The notes under the pieces: model-generated
Told to the model about the DNA's origin: nothing
The model's input: only the letters and a program-made list of their open reading frames with translations
Database searches by the model: none
Source of the DNA: a virus
Taxonomy: Duplodnaviria > Caudoviricetes
Strand: one strand, 5' to 3'
IMG/VR virus record: IMGVR_UViG_3300010163_000010
Coordinates: 32,001-96,000 of that record
DNA: 64,000 bases
Shown: one piece after another, positions 442-44,619 of the stretch
Layout of the letters: every line of letters starts with the position of its first letter
Numbering within the stretch: position 1 is the first letter of the stretch
Position numbers and translations under genes: made by a program

Positions 442-747
442 TCAGACCCTGGGAACCAGAACCATGTAGCCGTCGGTATCCCGGACACCGCTCTTGGTCT
501 TCTTGATCTTCTTACCGCTAAGCATCTTGTTGTACCGGTCACGGATCCGAGTCAGAATGTCGTTCTCACCGGCGTTGTTGGCATTGATAATAATGGACAG
601 GATCTCCTCATCGCGGGCTTCCTTGCCGTACACAGGGATAGCCAGGAGCGCGATCATCAGATCCCGATTGACGTCTTTCATAACGACCTTATTCGCGGTC
701 TTCTTCTCCTGCTTCTCCAGGAGCATAGCACGCACATTCACAGACAT
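442..747 (-). CDS. Hypothetical protein with C-terminal DTDGYMVLVP motif
   Basis: 101-aa ORF, GAAAGGA RBS, RACA-N6-TA motif upstream. Confidence 0.75.
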   Translation of the reverse strand: MSVNVRAMLLEKQEKKTANKVVMKDVNRDLMIALLAIPVYGKEARDEEILSIIINANNAGENDILTRIRDRYNKMLSGKKIKKTKSGVRDTDGYMVLVPRV

Positions 748-768
748 AGTAACACATCCTTTCTACGT

Positions 769-780
769 TATTTAATTGTC
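769..780 (-). promoter_or_regulatory. Putative late-type promoter motif RACA-N6-TA
   Basis: GACAATTAAATA on minus strand, upstream of the 747 ORF / spike / PAAR operon. Confidence 0.55.
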
Positions 781-827
781 TTGATACGATTAAATAAACA
801 ATTATAAGACCATTTTATAATACCTCG

Positions 828-839
828 AACACCAATATA
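828..839 (+). promoter_or_regulatory. Putative late-type promoter motif AACA-N6-TA
   Basis: AACACCAATATA 30 bp upstream of the RNAP beta gene. Confidence 0.6.
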
Positions 840-869
840 AAGTTCGGAAATACGGAAGGATGTGATACA

Positions 870-3800
870 ATGGTATATCTGGACTATCTTGACAGCTTTA
901 CAGTTTATAAGGCAAAGCAGCCGGTAATCATGCCGGAAGCAACCAAGAACCGTAAAAAGAACCGGGCGTACGTGGTCCTTGCTCCTACGATCGAGCAAGG
1001 ATTTCAGTTTTTGTCTACTACCAACAACGTCAAATATCGGAATCTGACCAAGTACTTCATTCCGATGAAATGGAACGTTTCTTTGTACGGCAGCGGCCAC
1101 CAAATTGTGAAATTTGATGCTGAGGGAGAAGTATCTGATCTGCTTTCCAAATACCAGCACGGAAACCTTTCTGGTATCAAGAAAGTGGATCGCTTTATCC
1201 CTGGAAAAGCCGATCCCCTCAAACAGTTTAACGTCTTGGTAGAAGTGAACTACGTATTTGATACGATTCTGAATAACGCCAAGGATCATAGAAAGCTGTC
1301 AGTTAAGATAGATCAAGTGCTGACTGAACTCGGCAAAGCTATAGCAACGATAAGCTCTCTCGGCAATTATGAGATAACCACGCTGATCCCATTGACTCTG
1401 TGGTTCTCACATGAAGATTACACTAATCCTGATCAGTTGTGGAAGCCCACAACGAAAAATCCCATGGGACATGTGTTAAGGTCACTCTTGTCGTACCGGA
1501 AAACCTTAGATCTGCTCGCTGGGCCTGGTGAAAACTCTTCATTGGTTTTGCTTGATAACAATACACTGATCAGGCTTACACCGAGTAAACTCCCAGCAGA
1601 TAGTGCTGATGGCAACGAATACAACCTTTTCATTAAGGATATATACAAGCAGTTCTTTACCAAAGCGAAAAAGAGCGTTGCTTCGGTTATTGACTATGGC
1701 GATGATGAAGAAACCATCAAGGATGCTGCCGCGGAGAAGCAGTTAGCCCAGGCCAAGAAAGAGACCACTGTAGACTTAGCTCAGGAAAAAATTGAAAAAG
1801 ATCTCAAAATCGACCATGAAAAACTCAGCGATGAAAAAGCTGCAGAGGTTCGCAAGATTGCAGCTAAGGCAGTAAGGGAGAAAGAAGAGCTGGTAGAACC
1901 CGAAGAGGAAGCTGATACCCCTGAGGTGGATGATACCAAACTTTCTCAACAGGAAGCAGACGTTCTTCTTACTGCACAGATGGAAGGCCGGTCCGCAGAA
2001 TCAGCAAAGCGCAACGAGATGCTCAAGAAGAAATACACCGAACTTAAAATGGGAGACACTTCCATTAAACAATTGGTCGAAGAAGAAAAGGAAGTTGATG
2101 TCCCTACAGTCGCAATCCATGCTAAAACTCTTAATCCTGCAATGGAAAATATCACTGGTCAACGGTTTGAGGAAGTTTACGAAGAAAACCTAATGCAGCA
2201 TGATCTTGTGAATATCCTTCTTCATTTCTCCACTGCAAAACCGGCAATGTATCTGAATAAAGACATCAAAATCGTTGATGTCTCTACTCATGTCGATCGG
2301 GTCATCAGATACACCGTTCAGTTTGAGGATGAGGATCGCAAACGTCACAGTTTCTCATTCAAGCTTCCTAAGATGTACAAGCACAAGTATCTGTACCTGA
2401 ATGGACAAGAGCTTGTCATTACACACCAAAAGCTCCCATATCCGATCACCAAGGTATCTGCAGATCGATGCCAGCTTGTTACAAACTACAACAAGTTGTT
2501 TATCTATCGGTACGGAACAGCACTATCTCCCAGAATGACGAAACTGAAGAAGATCCTCAGTGGAGACAAGCTTCCTAACTTGGCTATTCGTAAAGGTGAC
2601 TGTACACGATTAAATTCTCAGCTTACAACGATCGAATTTGATGACTTCGCTTCTAACTTTGTGACCATTGACATCGGAAACCAGAATGATAACATTCGGT
2701 TTTGTTTTGACCCCGAAATCAATATGGCAACAATATCTTCCACTGCAAAGAAGCCGACTCCAGATGGCGAAGATGAAAGTGCACTGTTTCCGATCGCTGT
2801 ATCCAGAAAAGGATCTACCAAAACTCAGTACTGGTTGTCTGGAATTACAAACAATATCTACGATTCCACTGGTAAGTCTTGTGGAGAACTATCAGAGTTC
2901 TTCACTGAAAAGCTCATAGAGTATATACCCGATGCAGCAAAAGAACTTGATGCAACTACAGTTGGATCACGATTTATTTACTCTCGTGTGCACATCATGG
3001 ATACAGAGGTTCCTTTAATTCTGGTAATGGGAGCTGCTGATCCTGATGGTCTGATCGGAGCTCTTGAAAAGGGTAAGATTAACTATCAGTTTGTAGACAA
3101 GAGGCCCAAGGTCGACAAAAACACTACTGGGGTTATACCGTTTGCTGATGGGTACCTCGTGTTTGACCGATATCCGTATGAGAACTCTCTGCTGATGAAC
3201 GGCCTCATGATACTGCCTACAAAAGAATACAACTTCTACGATCTCAATACCAGAGATACGTACGTTGATATATTCGATCATATGTGTGGCAGAAAGACTA
3301 TGGCCGATAACCTTCCGGCATTCTACTATATGATGGTAGATCCGATAACTAAAGAGGTTCTGAATAAACTCGGACAACCTACAGATTTCACAACACTGCT
3401 GCACTTCTGCAACGGTGTTCTGGTTGATAACTCCTATCAGATCGATTCTATCTATCTGAATTCCAGATTACGGTCTACTGAGATCATTATGGCCCATCTT
3501 TACAGAGAGCTTGCTGTTGCCTGGAGTAACTATCGGTCTGGGCGCACAGATACATTCTCAATACCCGAGGATGCCATCATCAAGATTCTTCTTACATCCA
3601 AAATCGTAGACCCAAAGTCCAGGCTGAACATTACACTCGAACTGGAGAACGACCGTAATGTGAAGCTCAAGGGTCCGAGTGGGATGAACGAAGATCATTC
3701 CTTCACAATCGAGAAACGTGCATATCATCCTACTATGCGAGGGATTATCGGAACCAACAGTACAGCTTCTGGTGAGGTTGGTATTTGCCGGCACATGGTG

Positions 3801-5126
3801 ATTAATCCCAATATTCTTGATGCCAGAGGATTCATTGATGTCAACAAAAGTGAAGGATACGATGGAACTGAGCTTATGACTCCCGGTGAAGCTCTGTCTC
3901 CGTTCAGCGTTGAGTCTGCTGACATTGAGAGGTTGTGTATGTCTGTAGGTCAGGCTAAACACCTGGTACCGGTGGACTCACAGTGTTCTCCTCCAATCTC
4001 ATATGACTTCGAACGAGTTGCACCGTACCTTAGCAACGACTTTGCATTCCAAGCTAAGCAGGATGGTCAGGTTGTTGAAATCAAAGATGATATCATGATT
4101 ATCAAATACAAGGACGGAACTTTCGACGATGTAGACCTCTCTGTGCACCCGGCTAAGAATACAGACGGTGGATTCTATATCATGAATAACCTGTCTACTA
4201 ATCTCACAGCCGGAAAGAAGTTTAAGCAAGGAGAAATTCTTGCTTATGACAAGAAGTACATCAATGACTTGGATTTCTTTGGAGATCCTTCGGCTAACGT
4301 CGGTACATTAGCACGAGTAGCCTTTGAATGTAACGGCTGTGTATTTGAAGACTCTGGTTATATAACAGATGAATTTGCACATAAGTTTGCTACACACATA
4401 ACACGACAAAAGAGAGTTATCATATCCCCATTTGCAAACATCAAGTACATCGCAAAGGTTGGTCAATCAGTTAAAGCCAATGATCCTATTCTGGCTTTTG
4501 ATGATACCGAAGATGAATTCTCGTCACAGCTGCTTGCATCTATTGCGGATCAGGCTGAAGATCTTGATGAAATTATCGCTACAAGTGCTCCTGTCGTATC
4601 CAAATTCACAGGAACAATTAAGGATATTGACATCGTTTACACCGTACCGATTGAACAAATGACACCAAGTCTTCGCAAGGTTGTCCAGGACTATTCTAAA
4701 GAGGCAGCCAAGCGAGAAAAGACCCTTAGCAAATATGTTAGCGTATTCGATGCAAACACCATAACCAAGAACTCGACGATCTCAGAAGTTGACTCACAAG
4801 GTAAGGTTGGTGGCGTTAAAATCGGTGAAGGAGTCATCATCGATTTCTATATCGAGTACGAGGACATAGCTGGCAATGGCGATAAGGGATCTATTGGTGC
4901 TCTTAAGTTCACTACCTGTGAGGTTATACCTACAGAACTGGCAGCCTACAGCGAGAATAACCCGGACAAGAAAATCGATCTGTATGTATCGGCCTTCGGT
5001 GCATTTAAACGCATGGTTGCCGACGTCGAGAAGGTCGGCATTCTTACCAAGGTTCTTGTAGAAGAAAAGCGACGCATGAAAGAACAGTACGGAGAGAAAA
5101 TCAAGGCAGAATTAAAGAAGAAGTAG
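870..5126 (+). CDS. rpoB: Phage multisubunit RNA polymerase beta subunit (large N/middle part, probably virion RNAP)
   Basis: Beta motifs: KGPSGM..EKRAYHPTMRG..GEVG (cf. GPGGL..EVRDVHPTHYG..GPNIG), DIERLCMSVGQAKHLVP (cf. DANRALMG..QRQAVP), FEDSGYI, GDKGS, DLYVSAFGAFKRM; lacks the beta C-terminus and has an ~400-aa N-terminal extension. Confidence 0.92.
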   Translation: MVYLDYLDSFTVYKAKQPVIMPEATKNRKKNRAYVVLAPTIEQGFQFLSTTNNVKYRNLTKYFIPMKWNVSLYGSGHQIVKFDAEGEVSDLLSKYQHGNLSGIKKVDRFIPGKADPLKQFNVLVEVNYVFDTILNNAKDHRKLSVKIDQVLTELGKAIATISSLGNYEITTLIPLTLWFSHEDYTNPDQLWKPTTKNPMGHVLRSLLSYRKTLDLLAGPGENSSLVLLDNNTLIRLTPSKLPADSADGNEYNLFIKDIYKQFFTKAKKSVASVIDYGDDEETIKDAAAEKQLAQAKKETTVDLAQEKIEKDLKIDHEKLSDEKAAEVRKIAAKAVREKEELVEPEEEADTPEVDDTKLSQQEADVLLTAQMEGRSAESAKRNEMLKKKYTELKMGDTSIKQLVEEEKEVDVPTVAIHAKTLNPAMENITGQRFEEVYEENLMQHDLVNILLHFSTAKPAMYLNKDIKIVDVSTHVDRVIRYTVQFEDEDRKRHSFSFKLPKMYKHKYLYLNGQELVITHQKLPYPITKVSADRCQLVTNYNKLFIYRYGTALSPRMTKLKKILSGDKLPNLAIRKGDCTRLNSQLTTIEFDDFASNFVTIDIGNQNDNIRFCFDPEINMATISSTAKKPTPDGEDESALFPIAVSRKGSTKTQYWLSGITNNIYDSTGKSCGELSEFFTEKLIEYIPDAAKELDATTVGSRFIYSRVHIMDTEVPLILVMGAADPDGLIGALEKGKINYQFVDKRPKVDKNTTGVIPFADGYLVFDRYPYENSLLMNGLMILPTKEYNFYDLNTRDTYVDIFDHMCGRKTMADNLPAFYYMMVDPITKEVLNKLGQPTDFTTLLHFCNGVLVDNSYQIDSIYLNSRLRSTEIIMAHLYRELAVAWSNYRSGRTDTFSIPEDAIIKILLTSKIVDPKSRLNITLELENDRNVKLKGPSGMNEDHSFTIEKRAYHPTMRGIIGTNSTASGEVGICRHMVINPNILDARGFIDVNKSEGYDGTELMTPGEALSPFSVESADIERLCMSVGQAKHLVPVDSQCSPPISYDFERVAPYLSNDFAFQAKQDGQVVEIKDDIMIIKYKDGTFDDVDLSVHPAKNTDGGFYIMNNLSTNLTAGKKFKQGEILAYDKKYINDLDFFGDPSANVGTLARVAFECNGCVFEDSGYITDEFAHKFATHITRQKRVIISPFANIKYIAKVGQSVKANDPILAFDDTEDEFSSQLLASIADQAEDLDEIIATSAPVVSKFTGTIKDIDIVYTVPIEQMTPSLRKVVQDYSKEAAKREKTLSKYVSVFDANTITKNSTISEVDSQGKVGGVKIGEGVIIDFYIEYEDIAGNGDKGSIGALKFTTCEVIPTELAAYSENNPDKKIDLYVSAFGAFKRMVADVEKVGILTKVLVEEKRRMKEQYGEKIKAELKKK

Positions 5127-5295
5127 ATGATTTATAATGTGCTTGTGGTGATGATTTTGACAACTTCACTCAAATTTTACGAAAAGGCAAAAATCATGAA
5201 AAATACACGCTATAGCGTTATTTATCACTAAAACAGCGCTTTATCGTAAAAGAAAACGTCATTTAGAGAAGGTATATTAGGCGAAGAAAACAACA

Positions 5296-5330
5296 GGGCA
5301 GAGGGGGGATATCCCCCCTCTGCCCATTTT
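5296..5330. terminator. Bidirectional intrinsic terminator
   Basis: GGGCAGAGGGGGGAT/ATCCCCCCTCTGCCC inverted repeat flanked by A and T runs between convergent genes. Confidence 0.85.
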
Positions 5331-5929
5331 TATTTCCTGGTTGACCAAATATCATTATCCCCCATAACTGTTGTACGGGGAACATAAGATCGATCTACCA
5401 ACTTCCCTTCCGCTTTACGTGTATCACCAAGCAAAGTTTCCAGAGCTTTAATGATGTTCTTATTTTTATTGATCCAGTCAACAACTGGTGCCAGAACTAT
5501 CTGCGTGTCCTTGGCAACACGACGGGTCTTACGAATCTGCCGTATTAATTTCACAAGCTGACTCGGAGTATAGTCGGTTTTAACCTCAAGTTCAACCGCA
5601 TGCATAATATCCGACGTAGCCCGATTCATTTCAACTTCTTCTTGCTGTGCGGTCTTATAACGAGATTCAACCTGACGTAAGAAATCAAGAAAGCTCTTTA
5701 TCGATTCGCTAGTCTGATCCAACTCGTACATCGTGAGACATTTAGGAGGCTCATACGATGCAATATGTGCAGACACGGCTTTTGTGTCACCCGAAGACTG
5801 GATTTCTATGGGATCGTTAATATTGGCTGTACTGTCATCTTTAAGTACAAACATAGATTCACCACCTATCTGCTCGGTATTACTCTCTTGTTGAGCAGAT
5901 AATAGCGATCTAAGAGTTGATAAGGTCAT
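5330..5929 (-). CDS. Hypothetical coiled-coil protein
   Basis: 199-aa ORF, GGTGA RBS, helical charged C-terminal half. Confidence 0.75.
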   Translation of the reverse strand: MTLSTLRSLLSAQQESNTEQIGGESMFVLKDDSTANINDPIEIQSSGDTKAVSAHIASYEPPKCLTMYELDQTSESIKSFLDFLRQVESRYKTAQQEEVEMNRATSDIMHAVELEVKTDYTPSQLVKLIRQIRKTRRVAKDTQIVLAPVVDWINKNKNIIKALETLLGDTRKAEGKLVDRSYVPRTTVMGDNDIWSTRK

Positions 5930-5956
5930 ATCAATTCACCACGATGTATTTTGAGA

Positions 5957-5974
5957 TACATACTATATCCGTGA
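5957..5974 (+). promoter_or_regulatory. Putative early promoter motif TAYATAYTATA-N4-TGA
   Basis: TACATACTATAtccgTGA; one of 11 copies upstream of + strand genes. Confidence 0.7.
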
Positions 5975-6055
5975 TAGGCAGGCTGAAATAAATACCCCAG
6001 GGTGTCACCGCACCCTGGGGATTTTTCAGGTAAACGAGAAAGGAGGATTATCGGC

Positions 6056-6205
6056 ATGTTTAACATGGTTAAATGGGCTGATGAGCTGCGGAAGCAGTGT
6101 AAAGCATCATCCTATCCCTACCTGGCTAATATGTCTGAGGAAGAAGAGGAGCGCTTGTATCAGGCTTCTCTGGCACGCTTCCTTAGGCAGCACGGTCAGG
6201 TATAG
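6056..6205 (+). CDS. Small hypothetical protein (MFNMVKWADELRKQ...)
   Basis: ATG preceded by GAAAGGAGG; downstream of early motif and followed by a terminator hairpin at 6245-6279. Confidence 0.65.
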   Translation: MFNMVKWADELRKQCKASSYPYLANMSEEEEERLYQASLARFLRQHGQV

Positions 6206-6244
6206 ATATACCACGTATCGTCACGATCTTTGTGACGGAACAGG

Positions 6245-6279
6245 AAGAAACTCATCACTGCCTGGTGGGTTTCTTTTTT
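6245..6279 (+). terminator. Intrinsic terminator
   Basis: AAGAAACTCATCA / TGGTGGGTTTCTT stem followed by T run. Confidence 0.6.
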
Positions 6280-6318
6280 ACTCCAGACTCGTTATTATTT
6301 TGTTATACTGTATCAGAA

Positions 6319-6450
6319 GGAACCCACATTCTGCACCACGATTCACGGACATCGCTGCTAGATAACCGTCTGATAGTATAAGTGATCCATTCATTAGAAT
6401 GATATATACCGCCAGTGCCTTTGGATCGTAATAACTATCTGTCGCCGGCG
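6319..6450 (-). repeat. Dispersed in-frame variable cassette A (CGCCGGCG...GTGGGTTCC, 132 bp)
   Basis: Reads PPATDSYYDPKALAVYIILMNGSLILSDGYLAAMSVNRGAECGF with no stop; shares both boundary motifs with four other loci. Confidence 0.8.
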
Positions 6451-6950
6451 GGAGGTTCTTGCTGCCAGCAGTTGTCAGACCGATCCTCGCTGAAAGAGTT
6501 ATCTGCAGCATCATCCGGCTCAACAGGCGCACTCTCATCGAACGCACTTGTGTCTAACCAGTCGACAGGTGTGTAGAAGGAATGAACCTCTTTATCGCCC
6601 ATAACCCAGAAACCAGAGATTTCTGACCAGACAATCCACTGCCCAGGGCACACTACAAGCGGCCCAGAGACATCATCGTTGAGGATAATGTGAAGCTCAT
6701 CCAGTGCATTGTGACCATGGTCACACGCAATCTCCACATTGTCGACAGAAATCGTCTTTCCACCGGTAATGCAGCAAAAAGCATCCCCGAGCCACTCAAT
6801 CACCTGCTGCAGATTACCGGGGAAGTTTTCCTTGGTGCAAACGTACTGAATGCCAACCAGGTTTCCTTTGGGCACCAGTTTGAGAATCGACCTAAATCCC
6901 GTATCAGACTCAGGCCGCAGGTCTTTAATCCCATTCTCATCCAACTGCAT
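6435..6950 (-). CDS. Hypothetical protein
   Basis: 171-aa ORF with AAAGGAGA RBS; acidic tail whose last codons overlap cassette A. Confidence 0.8.
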   Translation of the reverse strand: MQLDENGIKDLRPESDTGFRSILKLVPKGNLVGIQYVCTKENFPGNLQQVIEWLGDAFCCITGGKTISVDNVEIACDHGHNALDELHIILNDDVSGPLVVCPGQWIVWSEISGFWVMGDKEVHSFYTPVDWLDTSAFDESAPVEPDDAADNSFSEDRSDNCWQQEPPAGDR

Positions 6951-6971
6951 TGTTGAAATCTCCTTTCTTAA

Positions 6972-7640
6972 TCAGAACTGGTAAAGTCCATATTCCTTCA
7001 TAAAATCATTCATGTCGCCTTTATAGGTCTCAATAGAACCATTGGTCTTACAGACCACAATCTTTATCAGATACTCGTACTTGGAGAAACCCAGATAGCC
7101 ATTGGCCATGATGTCGTACACGCCACTGATCCCTTGTCGATGAAAGTTAATGAACTGGAAGAGTTCGCCGAGATTACGAATCAGCCGCTCTTCCTGCCAA
7201 ACATCAATCTTGCTTCCATTCCCATCGTCATCAACAGCAACGAGTCTGGCTCCGATTATCATCTTGTCAATATGGGCAAGCTTGAAGTAGCTTTTCACCG
7301 GAATCTTGGTGTACATCATATCACCGGTATCGACCAGAACAAATCCATTGCTCTTCTCGTGATCTCCAGTCTTCATGAGCTTCAGCTCTTTAGAAGCCGC
7401 CTTATCCTGCCCAGACTCAATTTTCAGCTCACCACAGCCGTACACATTCTTCCAAACAACGAAGTTGCTGGAATTGGTGCACTTGAACGACGAGTGACCC
7501 TTAAACCGCTTCAGCCTCTTGTAGTACCAGTACTTCCAGGAGCTCTTCTTAAACTTAGGCTGCTTCGGTTTCTTTTTCTTGAGGTTATTCGGTTTTACGG
7601 GGATGAGCGTATAGAACCCATCCCCAGTGCTTGTACTCAT
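6972..7640 (-). CDS. Hypothetical protein, N-terminal DGFYTLIP motif; probable paralog of 7637-8263
   Basis: 222-aa ORF with ATGA overlap to the upstream gene; Lys-rich N-terminus. Confidence 0.8.
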   Translation of the reverse strand: MSTSTGDGFYTLIPVKPNNLKKKKPKQPKFKKSSWKYWYYKRLKRFKGHSSFKCTNSSNFVVWKNVYGCGELKIESGQDKAASKELKLMKTGDHEKSNGFVLVDTGDMMYTKIPVKSYFKLAHIDKMIIGARLVAVDDDGNGSKIDVWQEERLIRNLGELFQFINFHRQGISGVYDIMANGYLGFSKYEYLIKIVVCKTNGSIETYKGDMNDFMKEYGLYQF

Positions 7641-8263
7641 AGTATCACCTTCCCCTTATCGTCAAATTTGAGACCTAGTATGATCTGAAGGTTCCTGGGA
7701 TCGCCACAGCTGTGATCAAAGGTCATGTCGTCATAGATAATAAGAACCTTCTCAACATATTTGATTCGCTTGTATCCGCCATGCTTTCCCATCTTTATGT
7801 ATTTATCAAGGTTATCATACATCACAGTGTGAATCCAGTTTAATGCACGCTTGAGTTCCGCGGGAGTAGTAATCAGCAAGTACATACTGCTATTCTTAGA
7901 CGATCCTTCAAGACGTTCGATAACAATCGAATCCATACCACCGCCTTCAAGCAATACTTTTACGGAAAGCGCGATAGCCTTAACATGCCGCAATTTCTCA
8001 GAGCCATCTTTAATGGCCGAGAATTTAGTTCCAGTGGACCAATTAATATCATTGCAGACACTCTTCCAAGCTTTGTTCTGCCAGGACTTGGCGGCGTAGT
8101 TAATCTTGTAGTGCCTGTTGATATTAACGCTCGCACCAGCAACCGGTTTGGTGGTAGTCGGGAAAACCACGGTGTCCTCGACGATCCTGCACTCGCCAAT
8201 GGGATACTCCATCTGAATCTTGGGTCTGAGGATATAGAACCCGTCTTCGTCGTAGTTGTTCAT
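7637..8263 (-). CDS. Hypothetical protein, N-terminal DEDGFYILRP motif
   Basis: 208-aa ORF with GAAAGGAG RBS. Confidence 0.8.
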   Translation of the reverse strand: MNNYDEDGFYILRPKIQMEYPIGECRIVEDTVVFPTTTKPVAGASVNINRHYKINYAAKSWQNKAWKSVCNDINWSTGTKFSAIKDGSEKLRHVKAIALSVKVLLEGGGMDSIVIERLEGSSKNSSMYLLITTPAELKRALNWIHTVMYDNLDKYIKMGKHGGYKRIKYVEKVLIIYDDMTFDHSCGDPRNLQIILGLKFDDKGKVIL

Positions 8264-10071: not shown

Positions 10072-10121
10072 AAATTGGACATGCGTGGTTAAGTACCGAG
10101 CCTGTCCAATTTTCTTTTGTC

Positions 10122-10139
10122 TATATACTATACAAGTGA
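10122..10139 (+). promoter_or_regulatory. Putative early promoter motif
   Basis: TATATACTATAcaagTGA upstream of RNase H. Confidence 0.7.
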
Positions 10140-10168
10140 ATAATGAACGGAGAGGATTGACGATAGAG

Positions 10169-10807
10169 ATGAGTCATAGGGTTGATTATCTACTGTTCAC
10201 TGACGCCTCGTGCCGGCGTGTTGACGATCGGCACTATTGCGCGTATGGAGACGTGATACTCAATACTGCAAATAACGAGTACACGAGCTTCGGAGGCCCG
10301 CTCGGGAATCAGAGCGTGGCGCACTGTGAAGCCTGGGCCATTTGGTCTGGGCTGCTGAAGACCAAGGAGATTATTGAGAGCCGTCCCGATAACAAACTCT
10401 GCAGAGTGCTGCTCATCAGCGATAGTAAGCTCAACGTTCTCGCGCTGAGCAAGTACTTGAGCAGCTGGGACATCAGTGACTGGAAGCATTGGAAGAAACA
10501 CAACTCCGAGGATCAGGTTAAGAATCAGGATCTGTACAGACGTATACTGGAACTGGTGTTCAATTGCGAACGAATGAAACTGAAGGTAACCCATATCAAT
10601 TCTCACCTTAAAGAAGACGACTGGCAGACGATCCAGGCTAAGTTGAGTAAGTTTGGTGTTACCGCAGATGAGAACACGTCGAAATTGTGTCTCAAGATGA
10701 ACGCGCTGGCTGACAGCATCGCTTCTGACATCAGTTGGGATCTCAGGTCTACAGATGATCCGGAAATGTTTATGCAGCTTGTGCCGCGCAGGCCAAGCAG
10801 TAAATAG
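10169..10807 (+). CDS. rnhA: Ribonuclease HI
   Basis: LFTDASC, CEAWAI, ISDSK, VKNQDL, HINSH, NALAD catalytic pattern; start moved to ATG 10169 after GGAGAGGA. Confidence 0.88.
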   Translation: MSHRVDYLLFTDASCRRVDDRHYCAYGDVILNTANNEYTSFGGPLGNQSVAHCEAWAIWSGLLKTKEIIESRPDNKLCRVLLISDSKLNVLALSKYLSSWDISDWKHWKKHNSEDQVKNQDLYRRILELVFNCERMKLKVTHINSHLKEDDWQTIQAKLSKFGVTADENTSKLCLKMNALADSIASDISWDLRSTDDPEMFMQLVPRRPSSK

Positions 10808-14860: not shown

Positions 14861-15154
14861 TTGATGCCTAAGGTTAAAGCCTTGTATGAGTGCCGGCAGT
14901 GTGGTGCTCATTTTATGTCTGATGAAAAGTATGACGTCAGAAATCTGGAGACTTATAAGGATCTGCAGTTTTTCGATCAGCTCAACGCGTTAGGGGAGCA
15001 AGTGCGGACTGAGACTGCTCCCGTGTCTTGGGCGAAGCATCTGTGGGTGCCGTTGAAGATTGTGCATAAGTGCAATGAGAGTGTTCACGGTGTATGCGAT
15101 CTGATTGGGCTTTTGGAGCTCCCTGATGACTCCGGAGATAACGACAGATCGTGA
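14861..15154 (+). CDS. Small zinc-finger protein
   Basis: CRQC ... HKC ... VC; GGAGGTG RBS. Confidence 0.7.
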   Translation: MMPKVKALYECRQCGAHFMSDEKYDVRNLETYKDLQFFDQLNALGEQVRTETAPVSWAKHLWVPLKIVHKCNESVHGVCDLIGLLELPDDSGDNDRS

Positions 15155-15962
15155 TCGCCAGGGGTTCTATTCCCTGAAGCGTAAGTACAGCGAACTGTAC
15201 AAACGTGTGAACTATATCCAGAGGGACATCGATCTCATCCAAAACAAGATTACCGAGTATGATATCCGCTCGGCCAACACGTCAATTTTGGAACAGAATC
15301 ACAAGCTCAAAAAAGCTACGTTGGAGGCGATCAACAGTCTCCCTGGAAAAGACCGTAAGGTTATTATAGGAAAAATGATCAAGAACGACCCCTCTCTGCA
15401 AAAGGTTATAGTCAGAGGTGTTATACGTGCAAAGAGGGATCTGTTCTCGGCAAATCTCATTCAAGATGCTGATGTATTAAGCATTAAGAATGATGCTGTA
15501 TTCATTATAGGGCGAAAGCTCAGGTATACATCGTTTGGTGCTATAGAGTTTAGGCCGAAACATGTGTATTCGCTCTACATGAACATAGATGGAACAGAGT
15601 TCTACTATGATAAGACTGAGCAAAGAGTCTCTGTTAAAGGTATCCGGGATGAGATAGTCGAACATCCCGATCATCAAGCAGGGATGATGCAGTTCTTTGT
15701 GACTGTAATGAAGCATTTAATGTTGGACCGGCGAGATGCTCTCAGAAAGTATCTGATTGAGTTCTCATCGGCCTATAAGGAAAAGAAACTTCCGCCGTGT
15801 TACTACCGGGAACTCAGCAGTGACAACTTCTATCGAACAAAAATGGCCTTGGGCGACTACACGTTTGCTCTTGATTATGCCAGTGAAGATGAACTTGAAT
15901 TGATTGATGGTGTATATAACTATAAAAGGTTTGTACTCCCGTTAATTCAAAAGTATATCTGA
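15126..15962 (+). CDS. Divergent family-B DNA polymerase palm-like subunit (split-polymerase piece)
   Basis: Motif A-like EYDIRSANTS and motif C-like SIKNDAVF in a 278-aa protein; inference from motifs only. Confidence 0.5.
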   Translation: MTPEITTDRDRQGFYSLKRKYSELYKRVNYIQRDIDLIQNKITEYDIRSANTSILEQNHKLKKATLEAINSLPGKDRKVIIGKMIKNDPSLQKVIVRGVIRAKRDLFSANLIQDADVLSIKNDAVFIIGRKLRYTSFGAIEFRPKHVYSLYMNIDGTEFYYDKTEQRVSVKGIRDEIVEHPDHQAGMMQFFVTVMKHLMLDRRDALRKYLIEFSSAYKEKKLPPCYYRELSSDNFYRTKMALGDYTFALDYASEDELELIDGVYNYKRFVLPLIQKYI

Positions 15963-35815: not shown

Positions 35816-35840
35816 TAGGAATGCGAGGTGATTACTCTCC

Positions 35841-36551: not shown

Positions 36552-37219
36552 TGGAATACGCAATAGGGCCGTTGGCTAAAAAGCCTTTTGAGATTATCGG
36601 GAGAATCCGGCTTCCTATGATCTCGTGGAATCCTGTGCCCGCAGGAGATACGAACAAGATGATCATCTCGGAACAGGCGCATGACATCTTTTACGGTGAG
36701 TTGTCCGCGTCTAAGATTCCGCAGATTATCCCTAATGAGTCCGCGTTTTATCTGGAGCTCTATAACGGGCTCAAGCCTGGGGAGGGCGCGGTTATCTCCA
36801 GTAAGATTCTGTTGGTTACTTCGGTAGAATCATACAAGGTGATTCCCACTGATCCTGATAATCCGATGATAAACCTGACGTTCAGGTATAAGGTTATTGA
36901 GATGAATTCAAAATCCACGGATATACCAGTTGTGGAATCTGTTATCTCACATATTATCATCCCTACGGACACTACTTGTGTTCTGTTCATCGAGGGGGAT
37001 AAGATACCTAACGCAAAACTTGCTCGGGCATTTAATGTTTTCAGGCATGGCGATAAGATCTATCACGCTAAGCGCAGTATGCACGTCGTCAATAGTGCAT
37101 CGGATGTACTTAACTGTACCGTTGTGGTTGGTTCTACTGATGAGTTGGCAGATAGTGCCGATCTTCCGTCGGATGATTGGCTCTATTATATTGCACAAAA
37201 GTTATATGGCGGAGTATGA
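36551..37219 (+). CDS. Hypothetical protein
   Basis: ATG 36551 overlaps the upstream stop; GGAGG RBS. Confidence 0.75.
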   Translation: MEYAIGPLAKKPFEIIGRIRLPMISWNPVPAGDTNKMIISEQAHDIFYGELSASKIPQIIPNESAFYLELYNGLKPGEGAVISSKILLVTSVESYKVIPTDPDNPMINLTFRYKVIEMNSKSTDIPVVESVISHIIIPTDTTCVLFIEGDKIPNAKLARAFNVFRHGDKIYHAKRSMHVVNSASDVLNCTVVVGSTDELADSADLPSDDWLYYIAQKLYGGV

Positions 37220-37231
37220 GGAGGTACACCA

Positions 37232-38182: not shown

Positions 38183-38781
38183 AAGCGATCGTCTGTACAA
38201 GTTGCAATTGGAAAATCGGAAATGCGGGGAAGCTGCTGTTTGACATTCCCGAGGATCGCCGTATGTTCCGGTATCACACAACCAGCATCGACTGGACGTA
38301 TACGCCTTGCTGGCATCCCCAGATGCCCATTGTCATCATGGGCCGCAAGACGTACGAGAGCCTTCCCGGCAAAAGGCCGTTGCCCAATCGGATTAATTGG
38401 ATTCTCTCCGATTCCCTCAAAGGTTCTGACCCAGAGGGGTTCAAGGTGGTCAGTTTGTCGGATATCCTGCGGCCGTGTTATGTGGAGAATCCGAACGTTT
38501 GGGTCATAGGCGGAGCGGAGGTATATCGGACATTAGCACCGTACTGCAGTCATTTCTATATCACATGCGTGAATCAGCACATTGAAGATTCTAATGCTGA
38601 TACCGCTATGTTTGATATTCATCGGAGCATTGATCCGAATGTGTCCTGCGAGATCGCCAGCAGTTCTGCCTGGTACGAATTTAAGCATAACGGTGAAAAT
38701 GTGCAATATCGGTTCGCCGTTTACCGCAACTATAAACGGATAAGGATGTATACAAGCGATGAACAAACAGTATCCCGATGA
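38179..38781 (+). CDS. folA: Dihydrofolate reductase
   Basis: IGNAGKL, PED...F..HT, IMGRKTYESLP..RPLPNR.N, WVIGGAEVY. Confidence 0.95.
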   Translation: MKAIVCTSCNWKIGNAGKLLFDIPEDRRMFRYHTTSIDWTYTPCWHPQMPIVIMGRKTYESLPGKRPLPNRINWILSDSLKGSDPEGFKVVSLSDILRPCYVENPNVWVIGGAEVYRTLAPYCSHFYITCVNQHIEDSNADTAMFDIHRSIDPNVSCEIASSSAWYEFKHNGENVQYRFAVYRNYKRIRMYTSDEQTVSR

Positions 38782-39430
38782 AGTGGTAAAGGAGACCCTT
38801 TCTCCGCAGGTTTTCCTTCTGGCTGTGGAGAATACCCTTAACCTCTCTAAGTCCGAGGGTGGTCCTAAGGATATGGTAGTTAGCAGATTCCTGTGCCACT
38901 TACTGCCGCTCTGCTATTTCCAGGGTATGTTCTCCGCTGTTGATGCGGTGGCTGCTGCGAAGAAGGAGAATGCTCGTATCGACGATCCTGAGGCTATGGC
39001 TGATAAGATTCTCGATGTGGGATACTCCAGGTATCTTTATGCGGTGAATTACTGTAAGGATGTCGAGGATGTCGATCTTGCTCCGATGGGATTTATCGAA
39101 TTCGTACATAAACTAGTCGAGTCGTTCGATAACCCATCAGTTCTTGAGGTAGCTATTGGTCATGCTATTGACCGGTTGGACAAGCATGTGCGAGAGTCGG
39201 CAAAGAAGGACATTGAGTCGGCAATGGGCAACACCTCTGATGACGTCGAACCCATAGAAATGCCTGATTTCGATACCTCTGATCCTGAGGTTCTGAAGGA
39301 GTTCTTCACGCTGTTCCAGGAGCTGGGAACGATCTACAACAGCCGAGACAAATATGAGACTGAAGAAGAGAAAAAGAAATACGACAGGTTTGTCGTCCTC
39401 TATAATACCATTTTGGGCGAGCAGCAGTAA
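38759..39430 (+). CDS. Hypothetical protein
   Basis: 223-aa helical ORF overlapping the folA end. Confidence 0.75.
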   Translation: MNKQYPDEVVKETLSPQVFLLAVENTLNLSKSEGGPKDMVVSRFLCHLLPLCYFQGMFSAVDAVAAAKKENARIDDPEAMADKILDVGYSRYLYAVNYCKDVEDVDLAPMGFIEFVHKLVESFDNPSVLEVAIGHAIDRLDKHVRESAKKDIESAMGNTSDDVEPIEMPDFDTSDPEVLKEFFTLFQELGTIYNSRDKYETEEEKKKYDRFVVLYNTILGEQQ

Positions 39431-39432
39431 CG

Positions 39433-39476
39433 TATATACTATAAGTACGAGCGGGAATAAAATCTCGCTCGTACTT
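39433..39476 (+). promoter_or_regulatory. Putative early promoter plus 5' hairpin
   Basis: TATATACTATA followed by stem AAGTACGAGCG/CGCTCGTACTT. Confidence 0.7.
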
Positions 39477-39504
39477 TATATATTACTAAAGGAGTGTGCG
39501 ATTT

Positions 39505-40785
39505 ATGAATTCCATTACGGTAGGGGACCTGTACTTCTTGAAGAGCCCTATTATCAGCACTAGTCACAGTATCGAGCAGGAGAAGAAATTGAGCTACCTC
39601 CTGGGAACAGTGTCCACGAGGCCGGCTGTTGTTATCCGTGCTCCCGCGTGGTGGGATGAGTTCGAGACCGTTACGGTTATCCCCGCTATGAGCAAGGGCA
39701 ACCCCGCCTTGAAGATGCATCTGACTGATCGGTATGGGCGGATGTCCAAAGCCGAGTACCCGTTTATCCCGCACAACCCGTATACGGTTCCGGTGTCCAG
39801 GTTGGGTAAGTATATCGGCTCTTTGGACAGAGAGGAGCTTAAGGAGCTCTTATATGCTTTTACGTGGATCCATGATGCCACCATGCAGGAAAACCCGACC
39901 TGTAGAGTCCCGTCTATCTACCAGCACGTAAGAGCTAAAAAGATACCGCCGGTCAATAACTGGTTAGATCATCACGACATAAGAGCAGAAACGGAGCTCG
40001 TCGTCGATGAAAATAATATCTTGACTTGTAAGGAGGATCTGACGATGAATGGATTCAAGATCATTCCTGCCGACACCCCTGTCGAGAAGCAGGAACGCCC
40101 GAAAACCGTCGTAACCAAAGCTACCGCGTTCAAACCGAGAGCGCGTGATGAGTCCAAGGAGTTCCCGCCGTCGACGTTCAGCGATGAGACCCTGCACCAG
40201 GTCGCTTCCCGGTTTAATATTAGCGCTGGCTACTATAACAACACGATCACCAAGCGGGATCCGAGCGTTCTGCGGCCTGACGAGATTGATACCATCCGTA
40301 AGAATCTCACCGCAAGAGAGTTTGATGAGATGGCCCAGTACTATAAGACCTTGACGCCCTTCGATGCGTTTGTCCTCGGGCCTCGTCTGCCCACCAGGGT
40401 CCTCATCAACATCACCGGGTTCAGCTACGATAACACTCTGGTGCTGAAGTCTCTGTGCAACTATATGCGCGATATGGATACCGAGGAATACAAAACCAGA
40501 ATCGTCAACCGCGCAGTGAGCAAACTGACAAAGACTCAGGCACCTAAGCCTGCTGATCAATCGGCAGTCACGGAATCCACATCTCCGGATTACAAGCAAT
40601 ACCTGGCTCGGGTGAAGCCGTGGCTCAATCCGAAGAAGATCACTAAGATGCCGCCCAGTATGGCTGAGCTGTTCGTGCAGATTCCGATGGGCATGGTTAA
40701 GCGTGCGTACCATGGCACGCAGTTCGATCAGAAGTACGCTGCAGCTATGGAACTCTACAGCAAGACTACTTCCGGGAATAAGTAA
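39505..40785 (+). CDS. Protein with N-terminal PemK/MazF-like domain and long C-terminal extension
   Basis: GDLYFL..RPAVVI..TVTVIPAMS..TVPVSRLGKYIGSL..EEL pattern of the MazF fold. Confidence 0.65.
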   Translation: MNSITVGDLYFLKSPIISTSHSIEQEKKLSYLLGTVSTRPAVVIRAPAWWDEFETVTVIPAMSKGNPALKMHLTDRYGRMSKAEYPFIPHNPYTVPVSRLGKYIGSLDREELKELLYAFTWIHDATMQENPTCRVPSIYQHVRAKKIPPVNNWLDHHDIRAETELVVDENNILTCKEDLTMNGFKIIPADTPVEKQERPKTVVTKATAFKPRARDESKEFPPSTFSDETLHQVASRFNISAGYYNNTITKRDPSVLRPDEIDTIRKNLTAREFDEMAQYYKTLTPFDAFVLGPRLPTRVLINITGFSYDNTLVLKSLCNYMRDMDTEEYKTRIVNRAVSKLTKTQAPKPADQSAVTESTSPDYKQYLARVKPWLNPKKITKMPPSMAELFVQIPMGMVKRAYHGTQFDQKYAAAMELYSKTTSGNK

Positions 40786-40830
40786 AGTAAATCCACCTCC
40801 TTTAATATCTGATTTGAATTCCAACCCACA

Positions 40831-40848
40831 TATATACTATAATCATGA
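40831..40848 (+). promoter_or_regulatory. Putative early promoter motif
   Basis: TATATACTATAatcaTGA. Confidence 0.7.
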
Positions 40849-40883
40849 AGGTCAGAAGATCAAGATATAGGAGGTAGACAATT

Positions 40884-41129
40884 ATGACCATCGTCAACAA
40901 GATCGACAGCTCCGTGCTGGAGCGGTTGATAATCAACTCTCTCCGCAAGGCAAATGCGGGGAAGAGCAGCAGCGACATCGACTGGCAGGTTCAGTCGGTA
41001 AAAAAATTCATGAATAGTTTCGGCATCAAGTTCATCGATGCCATCGAATGCGAGGACGGCTGCGTGTACCAGTACAGCCGTTTTGGCAATATCACCAAGC
41101 AGGCGATCCGCACCTGCGAGATTGTGTAG
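40884..41129 (+). CDS. Small hypothetical protein
   Basis: 81 aa, AGGAGGT RBS, own promoter and terminator. Confidence 0.8.
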   Translation: MTIVNKIDSSVLERLIINSLRKANAGKSSSDIDWQVQSVKKFMNSFGIKFIDAIECEDGCVYQYSRFGNITKQAIRTCEIV

Positions 41130-41148
41130 TAGCAGCAGGAACGAGATG

Positions 41149-41180
41149 GCCCGGGGAAATCCCCGGGCCGTTTCTTTTTC
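41149..41180 (+). terminator. Intrinsic terminator
   Basis: GGCCCGGGGA/TCCCCGGGCC followed by T run. Confidence 0.85.
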
Positions 41181-41193
41181 CTGTGATGGGCAC

Positions 41194-41307
41194 GGAACCC
41201 ACTAGAACTTCGATAATCGACACTGCTTATCATACCATCAACGTAGTGATTAGGACCTTCATGTATTACAATGTTGTATACCCCACAGATAGCATCTGCC
41301 GCCGGCG
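41194..41307 (-). repeat. Dispersed in-frame variable cassette C (114 bp)
   Basis: Reads SPAADAICGVYNIVIHEGPNHYVDGMISSVDYRSSSGFR. Confidence 0.8.
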
Positions 41308-41371
41308 AGTGAAAATTTTATTTTTATTTTTGATTGTATACGGATCATCTTTATAAAGGATGTGATGCGTT

Positions 41372-41539
41372 ATGTTAGAGCCCGTTGATGTTCCCGATGA
41401 TAAGAATAATCATAAAATGCTCTATCCGAGTAATGATCACCCCATTTCTACTTGGTATGGGGTGATTCTTGAGGAAGGCCTTAGGAATGCAAGTAACTAT
41501 GTCACAACAACTCTGAAGCGTATGAGGGATACCGAATGA
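41372..41539 (+). CDS. Small hypothetical protein (55 aa) coupled to sbcD
   Basis: Manual translation MLEPVDVPDDKNNHK...RMRDTE*; AAGGATGTG RBS; ATGA overlap with sbcD. Confidence 0.55.
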   Translation: MLEPVDVPDDKNNHKMLYPSNDHPISTWYGVILEEGLRNASNYVTTTLKRMRDTE

Positions 41540-42720
41540 GGGATTTCAAAGTATTTGTGTCTTTGGCTGATCTTCACTTTGGCGTAAAGCATGTCTCAGC
41601 CGCTAGTATGCGGGATCAGCTGAAGGAACACTTTTTCAAGACCGTTGACCGGATGCCGTATCTTGATGGCATCTTTATTCTCGGCGATACTTTGCACACC
41701 ACAACGACGTCGTTGAACAGCGACTATTCTGAACTGTTCATGTGGTTTGCGAGTAAGATCTATAAGTTGGCCCGGAAGAGAAACGCCACGGTTATCTGGA
41801 TCGCTGGGACGTTGTCTCACGATGGCCAACAGTTGTCTACTATTAAGCACTATGTCAACAATGACGATGGAATAGACTTCAGGGTATACGATACGGTTGA
41901 AGAGACCGAGATTTGGGATACCTATAAGCTGCTCATTCTCCCTGACGTGAAGGTTAAGAAGCTTAGTGACATTGGAGATAAGCTGGTGCCTGGTCGGTAC
42001 GATATGATCCTTGGACATGGTACTATCGATACTATGCAGTACTTTGTTCAGGAATCAGAAAACATGCCCACTAAGACCTATGTCTATGATGTCGAAAAAT
42101 TGATGGCCGCATCGAAAGGCCCTGTGATGTTTGGCCATATTCATCAGTACCAGACTATCGCCAATAAGTTCTGCTATGTGGGACCGTTCACGATGCTTGA
42201 GCGTGGCTGGCAGGACGCTGGTTTCGTTATCGGCGCTATCTACAATAAGGACACAACGAAATTCAAGTTTGAGCACTACTTAAATCCGGATTCCGCATCG
42301 TATACTGAAATTAATGTCACTCGGCATATTCTTAATACCATACCTATCGATGAGATCATTGAGTCTATCGATGAGATCATCAGCGAGACAAAAGAAAATG
42401 ATCTGATTACACTTCGTATTACTCGTGGGGATGAGATCAGTTCTGCTGAAAAAGTTATGATGTTAGAGAATCGGTATCGTTCTGACCGACGGATCTCTAT
42501 TGTGAAGAAGATCAAGAACAAGCAGGATCGGGATCGCGAGCAAGTTCAGAAGGATCGTAAGGATCATTTTGCTTATCTCATGGATGAAACTGAAGATCTC
42601 CCGGTAATTCTGTATCGGTACTATGAAGAGGAGATCAAACCTACAATTCCGGCTAACAGCGGGGCTGATAATCTGGTTCTTGAAGATTTCATCCGCGCTT
42701 TAAGCACCCCTACAAACTAG
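41536..42720 (+). CDS. sbcD: SbcD/Mre11-like metallophosphoesterase nuclease
   Basis: ADLHFG, ILGD, GTLSHD, LGHG, FGHIH motifs. Confidence 0.88.
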   Translation: MRDFKVFVSLADLHFGVKHVSAASMRDQLKEHFFKTVDRMPYLDGIFILGDTLHTTTTSLNSDYSELFMWFASKIYKLARKRNATVIWIAGTLSHDGQQLSTIKHYVNNDDGIDFRVYDTVEETEIWDTYKLLILPDVKVKKLSDIGDKLVPGRYDMILGHGTIDTMQYFVQESENMPTKTYVYDVEKLMAASKGPVMFGHIHQYQTIANKFCYVGPFTMLERGWQDAGFVIGAIYNKDTTKFKFEHYLNPDSASYTEINVTRHILNTIPIDEIIESIDEIISETKENDLITLRITRGDEISSAEKVMMLENRYRSDRRISIVKKIKNKQDRDREQVQKDRKDHFAYLMDETEDLPVILYRYYEEEIKPTIPANSGADNLVLEDFIRALSTPTN

Positions 42721-42740
42721 GTAAAGGATCAATTAGTACA

Positions 42741-42768
42741 AAGCCGGGCCTTCGGGGGTCCGGCTTTT
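42741..42768 (+). terminator. Intrinsic terminator
   Basis: AAGCCGGGCC TTCG GGGTCCGGCTT followed by T. Confidence 0.75.
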
Positions 42769-42795
42769 CTGTTCTTACATCCGTTTGAACTATTC

Positions 42796-42813
42796 TATAT
42801 ACTATTACCTTGA
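42796..42813 (+). promoter_or_regulatory. Putative early promoter motif
   Basis: TATATACTATTacctTGA upstream of the helicase gene. Confidence 0.6.
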
Positions 42814-42831
42814 GCATGGTGGGGTTTCCAT

Positions 42832-44619
42832 ATGAGCATGAATTATTTGAAAATGCTTACGGCTGTCGATAAGCTTCCGGTTCATACCGACATTGAGACT
42901 CTTGACATATATTGCGAGTATCTTTTGAATGATACCAGCAAATACATTAACTACGCGAATTTGACTAATCTTCAGGATTACATTGAGAGAATGGATCCGA
43001 AGGTTTTTATCACCAATGATGCCAAGATGGCTCGGTATGAATTTGTTCGATGCTATCTGGAGGCCCGTATAACTCGTGGTATCGTTTCGCGCAAGATGTG
43101 TTTGCGTTATATTGCTGAAAACGTTGAGCACCGGTACTGGAAAATTATTCAGCGGGACATCCTGAACTCGATCGAAGAGGATTCGCTGAAGAAGAAAGAT
43201 ATCGAGTTCATCAATGACATGGTGTTCGCTCAGTTGAACGTCATGTTCCTGCATAAGTATCGTGCTCCTCTTGTGCGTCTTCTGGAAGACCTTGAGAACA
43301 ATGAGTTTGGTAAGACTCCTGAAGACTGCTCGAATGCTATTCAGCTATTCCAATCTGCGCTGAATGAACTCACAACAGCTCAGCGTAGGTCCAAGCAGGA
43401 TAACCGGTTTAATCTCACTGACGCGAATCATTTCTATGCCGTTATGTCCGAGGCGTGTGCTCGGTTTTTGTCCGATAGCCAGTATTGGCAAACTGGCATG
43501 CAAGGACTGAACGATATGCTCGGTGGTGGTCTTGAGAATTCCCGTACGTACAATATCATTGGTGCAACGGGTGGTTTTAAGTCCGGTCTTCTGTTGAACT
43601 TGATGAAGATGGTGAAGCTTCGTAATAAGGGTCATGAGCACAAAGATCCCAAGAAGCGTCCGACCATTCTGTTTTTGTCCCAAGAGAATAATATTTGGGA
43701 GACCATTCTCCGTATCTTTAATATTTTTGGTACTACAAAGAACGTGCGTAACTTTACCGCAGCTGAGATTATGGAGATCTTGGCCAAGGGTGGTTTCTGC
43801 CTGGTTAATGATGATCTGGATATCGATATCGAATTCCGGTACTATGGGAACATGGACATTGGTGTCAATGATATCCGCGGTATTGTTGAAGAGATCGAGA
43901 ATGGCAACCGCGAGGTCATCGGTATCTTCCAGGACTATATTGAGAGGCTTCGTCCGCCGGTTATGAGCGTAGATCGCCGCACACAACTCAGCGATTGTTC
44001 TAACCAGCTTCATGACCTGGCGATTGACCTGGACATCTGGATTGTCACCGGTTCTCAGTTTAACCGTAATGGTGTTGCGGTTATTGAGGATATGCGTGCT
44101 TCGAATAAGCATGACATCGGCATGAAGGTTGGCAGCAAGGACATTTCTGAGTCCTTTGGTATGCTCAAGAACTTCGATGTGAATATCTGTATTATCATCG
44201 AGTATGACGCTAACGAGGAGCGGTTCTGGTTATCGTTCCGACGATTAAAATTCCGCGGTGACGACACCGATAGGTTGAGCTACTTTGTTCAACCGTTTGT
44301 TGGCAAGAACAGTAAGATTCAGCTCATGGAGGATATTAATCTGGAGCAGCCGTTGTATCGAACCTCTATGATCGATGAGGTCAACGCCGGAATCATCGAT
44401 GATGCTGTAGCCATGAAGGATATCACCAGAAGGACCAGAACTATTCTGGAGCCGCTGACCGATGATCCTGAGGATATCGATATCGCAAACTTCGTTGGCG
44501 AGTATATGAGCGATCTGGCCAAGTCTACCGGTGAACGGTCTGATGGCCGTATCGACGATGTTGATGGGTTCTACGTCTTGATTCCTGCACTTCCGGGGAT
44601 GATGACGATTACCAAATAG
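42832..44619 (+). CDS. dnaB: DnaB-like replicative helicase
   Basis: TG..GLNDMLGGG, Walker A GATGGFKS, FLSQEN, QDYI, TGSQFNR, ISES, KFR. Confidence 0.9.
   Translation: MSMNYLKMLTAVDKLPVHTDIETLDIYCEYLLNDTSKYINYANLTNLQDYIERMDPKVFITNDAKMARYEFVRCYLEARITRGIVSRKMCLRYIAENVEHRYWKIIQRDILNSIEEDSLKKKDIEFINDMVFAQLNVMFLHKYRAPLVRLLEDLENNEFGKTPEDCSNAIQLFQSALNELTTAQRRSKQDNRFNLTDANHFYAVMSEACARFLSDSQYWQTGMQGLNDMLGGGLENSRTYNIIGATGGFKSGLLLNLMKMVKLRNKGHEHKDPKKRPTILFLSQENNIWETILRIFNIFGTTKNVRNFTAAEIMEILAKGGFCLVNDDLDIDIEFRYYGNMDIGVNDIRGIVEEIENGNREVIGIFQDYIERLRPPVMSVDRRTQLSDCSNQLHDLAIDLDIWIVTGSQFNRNGVAVIEDMRASNKHDIGMKVGSKDISESFGMLKNFDVNICIIIEYDANEERFWLSFRRLKFRGDDTDRLSYFVQPFVGKNSKIQLMEDINLEQPLYRTSMIDEVNAGIIDDAVAMKDITRRTRTILEPLTDDPEDIDIANFVGEYMSDLAKSTGERSDGRIDDVDGFYVLIPALPGMMTITK

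Follow-up and report, generated by a model that had tools for sequence, protein, structure and literature searches.

In bacteriophage T4, late transcription is activated by the clamp. The phiKZ/AR9 supergroup of jumbo phages has been described as being without a classical sliding clamp (Iyer et al. 2021, PMC7824862), and for the Chimalliviridae a first clamp-derived polymerase subunit, Rhc, was reported only in October 2026 (PMC13648698, preprint). In Rhc a clamp-derived domain is fused to RNase HI and forms the third subunit of a split family-B polymerase; it also supports late transcription (PMC13648698). That paper describes no client tag, and the word 'motif' is absent from its text. Here we report on a 64,000-nucleotide stretch of viral DNA (hereafter the window), which covers bases 32001-96000 of the 105,182-bp IMG/VR contig IMGVR_UViG_3300010163_000010 (CheckV completeness 41%), and on a short peptide, hereafter the tag, that recurs at the ends of unrelated proteins encoded there and in related genomes. 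The tag appears to be a docking signal. No description of it was found in the literature, nor of any client-tag system among jumbo phages.

A preliminary description of the window had listed seven copies of the motif. All seven peptides translate as claimed (coordinates and strands checked), and each lies at the claimed end of a called open reading frame (ORF). Comparisons were made with three whole related genomes (G001, G003 and G004), genes being called by a simple codon-usage ORF picker. When a scoring matrix trained without the contig was applied, six of the seven were retained as members of one family:

451..480, (-), DTDGYMVLVP: two residues ahead of the stop of P0001 (101 residues, ORF 442-747); 25 bits
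7599..7628, (-), TGDGFYTLIP: residues 5-14 of P0002 (222 residues, ORF 6972-7640), followed by a lysine-rich stretch
8222..8251, (-), DEDGFYILRP: residues 5-14 of P0003 (208 residues, ORF 7637-8263); 29.6 bits
10757..10786, (+), DPEMFMQLVP(RR): degenerate copy six residues ahead of the stop of RNase HI (ORF 10085-10807); 16.2 bits
15153..15182, (+), DRQGFYSLKR: N-terminal part of a 285-residue phrog_21037 protein (ORF 15105-15962); 26 bits
44557..44586, (+), DVDGFYVLIP: C-terminal tail of a divergent DnaB (ORF 42832-44619); 20.7 bits

The seventh peptide, DENGIKDLRP (6912..6941, (-), N-terminus of ORF 6435-6950), scored below 8 bits in the same leave-one-genome-out test, has no ortholog in the three relatives and is not a member. 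The copy in P0002 scored 13.7 bits with its own genome left out and 19.8 in the full matrix, and this N-terminal tag is retained in all three relatives and in five homologs from databases. The ortholog of P0003 in G001 has YRDDDGFIILKR at residue 11. P0002 and P0003, the products of adjacent genes, show no similarity beyond the tag, which rules them out as paralogs. Tag sites lie outside Pfam or PHROG domain matches: the Pfam RNase_H match spans residues 35-174 of the RNase HI, the profile match of the phrog_21037 protein covers residues 30-282, and Pfam divDNAB stops at residue 514 of the DnaB, in which the tag begins at residue 576. The phrog_21037 tag is retained in all four orthologs. Only one of three RNase HI orthologs is tagged, that of G003 having RGFITMIPRR at the matching place and those of G001 and G004 none. 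A GIY-YIG N-terminal motif was considered as the origin of the N-terminal copies and rejected, as no match to that family was found.

A six-frame translation of the contig has five matches to the strict pattern DG[FYW][FYM]x[LIVM]xP, none of them more than 15 residues from an ORF end. The fifth of these copies, NDGFYELKP, lies outside the window (genome 7335-7358(-)), and degenerate copies were found beyond the window at the C-terminal end of a 236-residue protein (genome 99269-99979) and in the N-terminal extension of an NAD ligase (genome 102153-104657). The 14-column scoring matrix was built by iteration and, as a guard against circularity, retrained on G001, G003 and G004 only. So trained, it finds 8 sites of at least 12 bits in the contig, compared with a mean of 0.105 in 200 shuffles, and 6 sites of at least 18 bits, compared with none. 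The full matrix gives 70 sites of at least 12.4 bits in the four genomes (shuffled proteomes give about 1), and the number of copies in each of the three related genomes (230-288 kb phages) is 17-25. The placement at protein ends that had been proposed holds across this larger set: 52 of the 70 sites (19 N-side, 33 C-side) are no more than 40 residues away from a protein end, whereas 20,000 runs of random placement gave a mean of 20.5 such sites and a maximum of 35. C-terminal copies finish 1-30 residues ahead of the stop, with P-R/K after the core.

It had also been proposed that the codons differ between copies and that selection acts on the peptide, and the codon comparison bears this out. 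Of 131 identical residues only 51 share their codon, and nucleotide identity averages 51%. Because the codons differ and the related genomes span 37-51% GC, the target of selection is the peptide and not the DNA. A back-translated DNA pattern matches each related genome 7-8 times (the partial record G005, 3 times), and almost all of these matches are in frame and at ORF ends; its reversed control matches 0-1 times. Neither chance nor a DNA repeat is therefore the origin of the tag, as the shuffles, the reversed pattern and the differing codons show.

The consensus of 64 strong sites is R-D-x-[DE]-G-F-h-x-L-x-[PRK]-[RKT], in which h is hydrophobic. Taking the D/E that precedes the glycine as position 0, the counts are as follows:

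Position -3: R, 40/64
Position -2: D, 55/64
Position 0: D or E, 55/64
Position +1: G, 63/64
Position +2: F, 62/64
Position +3: hydrophobic, 58/64
Position +5: L, 63/64
Position +7: P, R or K, 61/64
Position +8: R, K or T, 53/64

In the AlphaFold2 (AF2) model of P0001 the only confident part is the last 30 residues (71-100; predicted local distance difference test, pLDDT, 82-89), which form a hairpin, then the D-G turn and the F-h-x-L strand. N-terminal copies lie too near the methionine for a hairpin, and the core is therefore D-G-F-h-x-L-x-P.

Conservation in orthologs, on which the preliminary description had made its proposal depend, was found: the tag is kept while the flanking tails diverge. 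In DnaB orthologs down to 57% identity it is the sole conserved island in a divergent tail, and it lies in the last 20 residues of 114 of 117 P0001 homologs (43-100% identical), the other three having near-variants. In fourteen protein families three or four genomes have it, at the same end each time. In some families it is sporadic (RNase H in 2/4 genomes, GyrA in 1/4, superfamily 2 (SF2) helicase in 2/3). The tag is thus gained and lost among orthologs of accessory enzymes, and this sporadic presence fits a tunable docking motif. Beyond the relatives, the DNA pattern shows no excess over the control in AR9, phiR1-37, PALS_2, LPJP1 or phiKZ, and the tag is therefore private to the clade of the window phage. 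A distant lineage (L108) has no DGF tag in 17 kb; the matching region is tagless in tag-using phages too.

About twenty unrelated proteins carry the tag, and every one that could be annotated is a nucleic-acid-handling protein, which fits one hub on phage DNA. These are DnaB, RNase HI, an HNH_3 nuclease, an SF2 helicase, a reverse transcriptase of diversity-generating retroelement (DGR) type (two copies), bAvd, a PC4-like protein, NAD ligase, GyrA, a Bro-N/ANT protein, a helix-turn-helix (HTH) protein and a family of HNH homing nucleases. Moreover, three tandem tags lie in the C-terminal extension of a protein homologous to the non-virion RNA polymerase beta subunit of AR9 (PDB 7S00 chain c, E 7.6e-41). 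They are present in all three related genomes and would provide a testable link between replication and late transcription. The RNA polymerase beta-like protein encoded in the window (1418 residues) is untagged, does not match the solved non-virion enzyme and probably represents the virion polymerase. None of the structural proteins is tagged. The tagging of homing nucleases and of the DGR reverse transcriptase suggests that selfish or accessory elements exploit the docking code. A search of P0003 against the ESM Atlas, and of uncharacterised carriers against PDB sequences, gave no usable match.

The gene of P0001 (442-747(-)) is divergent from that of the untagged RNA polymerase beta-like protein (870-5126(+)) in all four genomes; its size and C-terminal docking tail are reminiscent of T4 gp33, though this is speculation. 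In G003 the ortholog of that polymerase gene is apparently split (68215-73779), and a tagged HNH endonuclease gene (68574-69359) lies between a 67-residue fragment and the 1385-residue main part. The DGR-type reverse transcriptase, with two tags, adjoins a bAvd-like protein with one (G003 144893-147122, G001 227397-230360), and the diversity-generating element seems to be wired into the same docking system.

A candidate for the docking partner is encoded in the relatives. Directly after the gene of the family-B polymerase exonuclease (PolB-exonuclease) lies that of a 245-residue protein (G001 173671-174408(-), G003 141273-142007(+), G004 68093-68833(-)), for which the AF2 model has a pLDDT of 89.9 and a predicted template modelling score (pTM) of 0.84. 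The top Foldseek matches of this model are all PCNA, 9-1-1 or beta clamps (E down to 1e-5). With VIA-align the 39 best chains, among them T4 gp45 with a ligase peptide (6DRT), are all clamps or processivity factors (Z 6.6-11.2), and the next score is 4.8. The match is to a two-domain PCNA/gp45 fold over residues 1-245 (Z 9.4-11.2 to PCNA, 9-1-1 and gp45). The clamp-fold family comprises 52 clusters in 1.84 billion proteins, and the IMG/VR contigs that contain it are all within the tag clade. Its gene always adjoins that of the exonuclease subunit, and in one distant lineage the two are fused (P0172, 937 residues, L108 10001-12814). The tag occurs on none of 51 representative homologs (0/51), nor was a natural clamp-tag fusion found among them. 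A tblastn search of GenBank phages with the clamp-fold protein gave no match, and a profile search of the AR9 proteome found nothing. The Pfam families for the beta clamp (PF00712, DNA_pol3_beta) and PCNA (PF00705, PCNA_N) had no match in the genomes searched. The gene directly after that of the divergent DNA polymerase (divDNApol) was also considered as a clamp and rejected; it encodes a P-loop protein.

Considering all forms of docking jointly, it is very likely that the tagged proteins have a common docking partner. The enrichment at ends, the conservation among orthologs and the nucleic-acid carriers all support the hub proposed in the preliminary description, and from them we infer the contact itself. 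Whether that partner is the clamp-fold protein is an evenly balanced question, the case for it being the fold, the gene position, the fusion and the parallel with Rhc; of the options that had been raised, a tether like the PCNA-interacting protein (PIP) box or the T4 tails is favoured by the presence of this candidate hub in the relatives. The peptide would then be a lineage-specific docking tag on flexible terminal extensions of non-virion DNA and RNA enzymes. A pocket on one phage-encoded receptor sited on DNA would take up its three hydrophobic, exposed residues, and docking would concentrate the helicase, ligase, RNase H, non-virion RNA polymerase, regulators and selfish nucleases at replication sites. 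The predicted receptor is the 245-residue PCNA/gp45-fold protein beside the exonuclease subunit of the split family-B polymerase, an apparent counterpart of the Rhc clamp domain of the Chimalliviridae. The system would operate like the PIP box or the client tails of T4 gp45, with a different consensus.

Several observations weigh against a clamp as the hub. The clamp-fold gene is absent from the 41%-complete contig and is known from the relatives only. No RFC-like clamp loader was found, DNA_pol3_delta2 (PF13177) having no match and AAA (PF00004) sub-threshold matches only; a divergent loader is possible, as is a loader-free monomer like Rhc or UL42. The Rhc domain is reported to be monomeric (PMC13648698), and the candidate may therefore not be a ring with three client pockets. 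Across the 64 sites the tag consensus fits no known clamp-binding motif, with no Q anchor and no LDFLF, and DnaB, the PC4-like single-stranded DNA (ssDNA)-binding protein and HTH regulators are unusual clamp clients. Furthermore, divDNApol and the PolB-exonuclease are untagged, the only match being weak, internal and probably part of the fold. The polymerase ends instead in a nearly invariant YYTNIVRI of its own, which the lineage that has no DGF tag shares with the other three, and this peptide could fill the canonical clamp pocket. It could also be the contact of the polymerase with the clamp-fold subunit. The divDNApol genes with this C-terminus are:

G001 178908-180956
G003 134479-135354
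G004 164792-166804
L108 7166-9196

The polymerase operon (G001 181036-185826; syntenic in G003, G004 and L108) also encodes a P-loop protein with GAGGNGKDT, two unknown proteins and a protein of 640-650 residues with a weak Cpn60/TCP-1 match.

Docking on a different hub is possible but rather unlikely, whether this were the polymerase itself, as for the acidic tails of T7 gp4 and gp2.5, a nucleoid protein, an ssDNA binder or a protein of the host. Homologous DnaB tails end in tips like that of single-stranded DNA-binding protein (SSB), namely DSGIPF in AR9 (L082, g007), EDDIPF in LPJP1 (L085) and IFDDF in PALS_2 (L084), and a 356-residue AR9 protein (133928-134998) has an internal DDDIPF and ends in DGGINF. 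The PC4-like ssDNA binder and DnaB are also both tagged, in the manner of the shared tails of the T7 helicase and SSB. However, a client list of about twenty that takes in regulators and homing nucleases is long for a patch on a polymerase, and the tag lies off the extreme C-terminus and at N-termini (19 sites within 40 residues of the N-terminus), unlike SSB tips. For a host receptor in particular, the confinement of the tag to one phage clade across 37-51% GC is unfavourable, and argues for a receptor encoded by the phage. A many-protein 'IPF' tag in AR9 was considered and rejected, as only DnaB and one other protein carry IPF. That there is no protein receptor at all, the tag and its basic flank being a beta-hairpin module that binds phage DNA directly, is highly improbable. 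The confident hairpin and strand of the P0001 tag region (pLDDT 82-89, the remainder being modelled poorly) would suit such a module, as would the basic residues that are common at +6 to +8 and beyond and the action of all annotated carriers on nucleic acid. Yet the positions that do not vary are acidic (D, D/E) or hydrophobic (F, h, L), as suits a protein pocket rather than DNA, and the N-terminal copies leave no room for the upstream hairpin.

The tag could instead be a targeting or import signal, an analogue of the nuclear localisation signal (NLS), with which a transport or sorting machine would bring DNA-handling proteins into a replication compartment made by the phage. We consider this unlikely. 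The carriers are indeed proteins that must reach phage DNA, the selfish HNH nucleases, DGR components, regulators and non-virion polymerase among them, and import explains the list as well as docking does. The injected, probably virion, polymerase is untagged, the tag occurs at either protein end and in tandem, and basic residues often follow it, all of which could be expected of such a signal. On the other hand, proteins that would require import are mostly untagged (the polymerase subunits, GyrB, GyrA in 3/4 genomes and RNase H in 2/4). Homologs of chimallin and PicA were not found when phiKZ gp54 and gp69 were searched against the four proteomes with phmmer (nothing below E 0.5), which is a weak test. 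AR9-like phages are described as being without chimallin, and known phage-nucleus import is reportedly independent of terminal signals (PMC13282480). The import option of the preliminary description is therefore consistent with the carrier list and weakened by the untagged essential enzymes and the undetected chimallin and PicA. The more specific form, a terminal import or localisation signal into a non-chimallin compartment used by about twenty enzymes and by hitch-hiking selfish nucleases, is distinctly unlikely. If import were true, it would give bacterial viruses their first known linear 'NLS'.

With regard to its genomic setting, the window encodes the 1418-residue RNA polymerase beta-like protein, two topoisomerase II subunits, the divergent DnaB (Pfam divDNAB) and RNase HI. 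Distant kin of the DnaB are the helicases of AR9/PBS1, phiR1-37 and Staphylococcus jumbo phages, and the closer relatives of the window phage, 230-288 kb in length, are uncultured and come from IMG/VR. Homologs of one small protein occur in metagenome bins with the labels Muribaculaceae, Duncaniella and Ruminococcus. From these affinities and bin labels, the contig is part of the genome of a jumbo phage from gut or rumen, whose clade has its own multisubunit RNA polymerases. A look-up of sequencing runs that contain the window listed none. Upstream of the window, a single ORF of 4552 codons (genome 17486-31144(-)) stops 856 bases before window base 1; its orthologs in the relatives are 3114-3571 residues long.

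As a portable peptide of 12 residues, the tag would allow replisome and transcription clients of uncultured jumbo phages to be listed from sequence alone, the uncharacterised P0001, P0002 and P0003 among them, and the peptide would be a direct pull-down handle on the hub.

Among described systems, the clients of T4 and RB69 gp45 (the C-termini of gp43, gp33 and gp55, and the ligase peptide of 6DRT) are alike in bearing a short acidic-aromatic-hydrophobic peptide on flexible ends. There too the clients of one phage include polymerase-associated enzymes, ligase, RNase H and late-transcription proteins, and the gp45/PCNA-fold protein is encoded beside the polymerase. The tagging of the non-virion (late) RNA polymerase recalls T4 late transcription. 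However, the consensus here is R-D-x-D-G-F-h-x-L-x-P-R and not (S/T)LDFLF, no clamp loader was found, the catalytic polymerase is untagged, and the clients include DnaB, homing nucleases, the DGR reverse transcriptase and HTH proteins. The candidate clamp also lacks sequence similarity to gp45. With Rhc phages the tag-using phages share a replication kit in which the exonuclease and the polymerase are separate subunits, the DnaB is divergent and a clamp-derived fold is tied to the polymerase; RNase HI and late transcription are connected with the clamp there and would be here. The difference is that the clamp fold here stands alone or is fused to the exonuclease, and RNase HI is separate and tagged in 2/4 genomes. 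The tagging of RNase HI and of the late polymerase is as expected if the tag replaces the covalent link of Rhc.

The PIP box (Qxx[LIM]xx[FY][FY]) of PCNA clients and the beta-clamp motif QL[SD]LF resemble the tag in their position in disordered tails, their many unrelated clients in DNA transactions, their basic flanks, their tandem copies and their frequent gain and loss among orthologs; the sequence of the tag differs, and it has no glutamine anchor. The SSB tip (DDDIPF) and the acidic C-terminal tails of T7 gp4 and gp2.5 are likewise acidic-then-aromatic peptides, found on helicase and ssDNA-binding protein tails. In contrast to the one hub protein of those systems, about twenty proteins carry the tag, which lies off the extreme C-terminus and is also found N-terminally and in tandem. 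Many-client docking through a short motif on a DNA-bound hub is thus a known kind of arrangement; what is new here is the consensus, with its list of clients and its candidate receptor.

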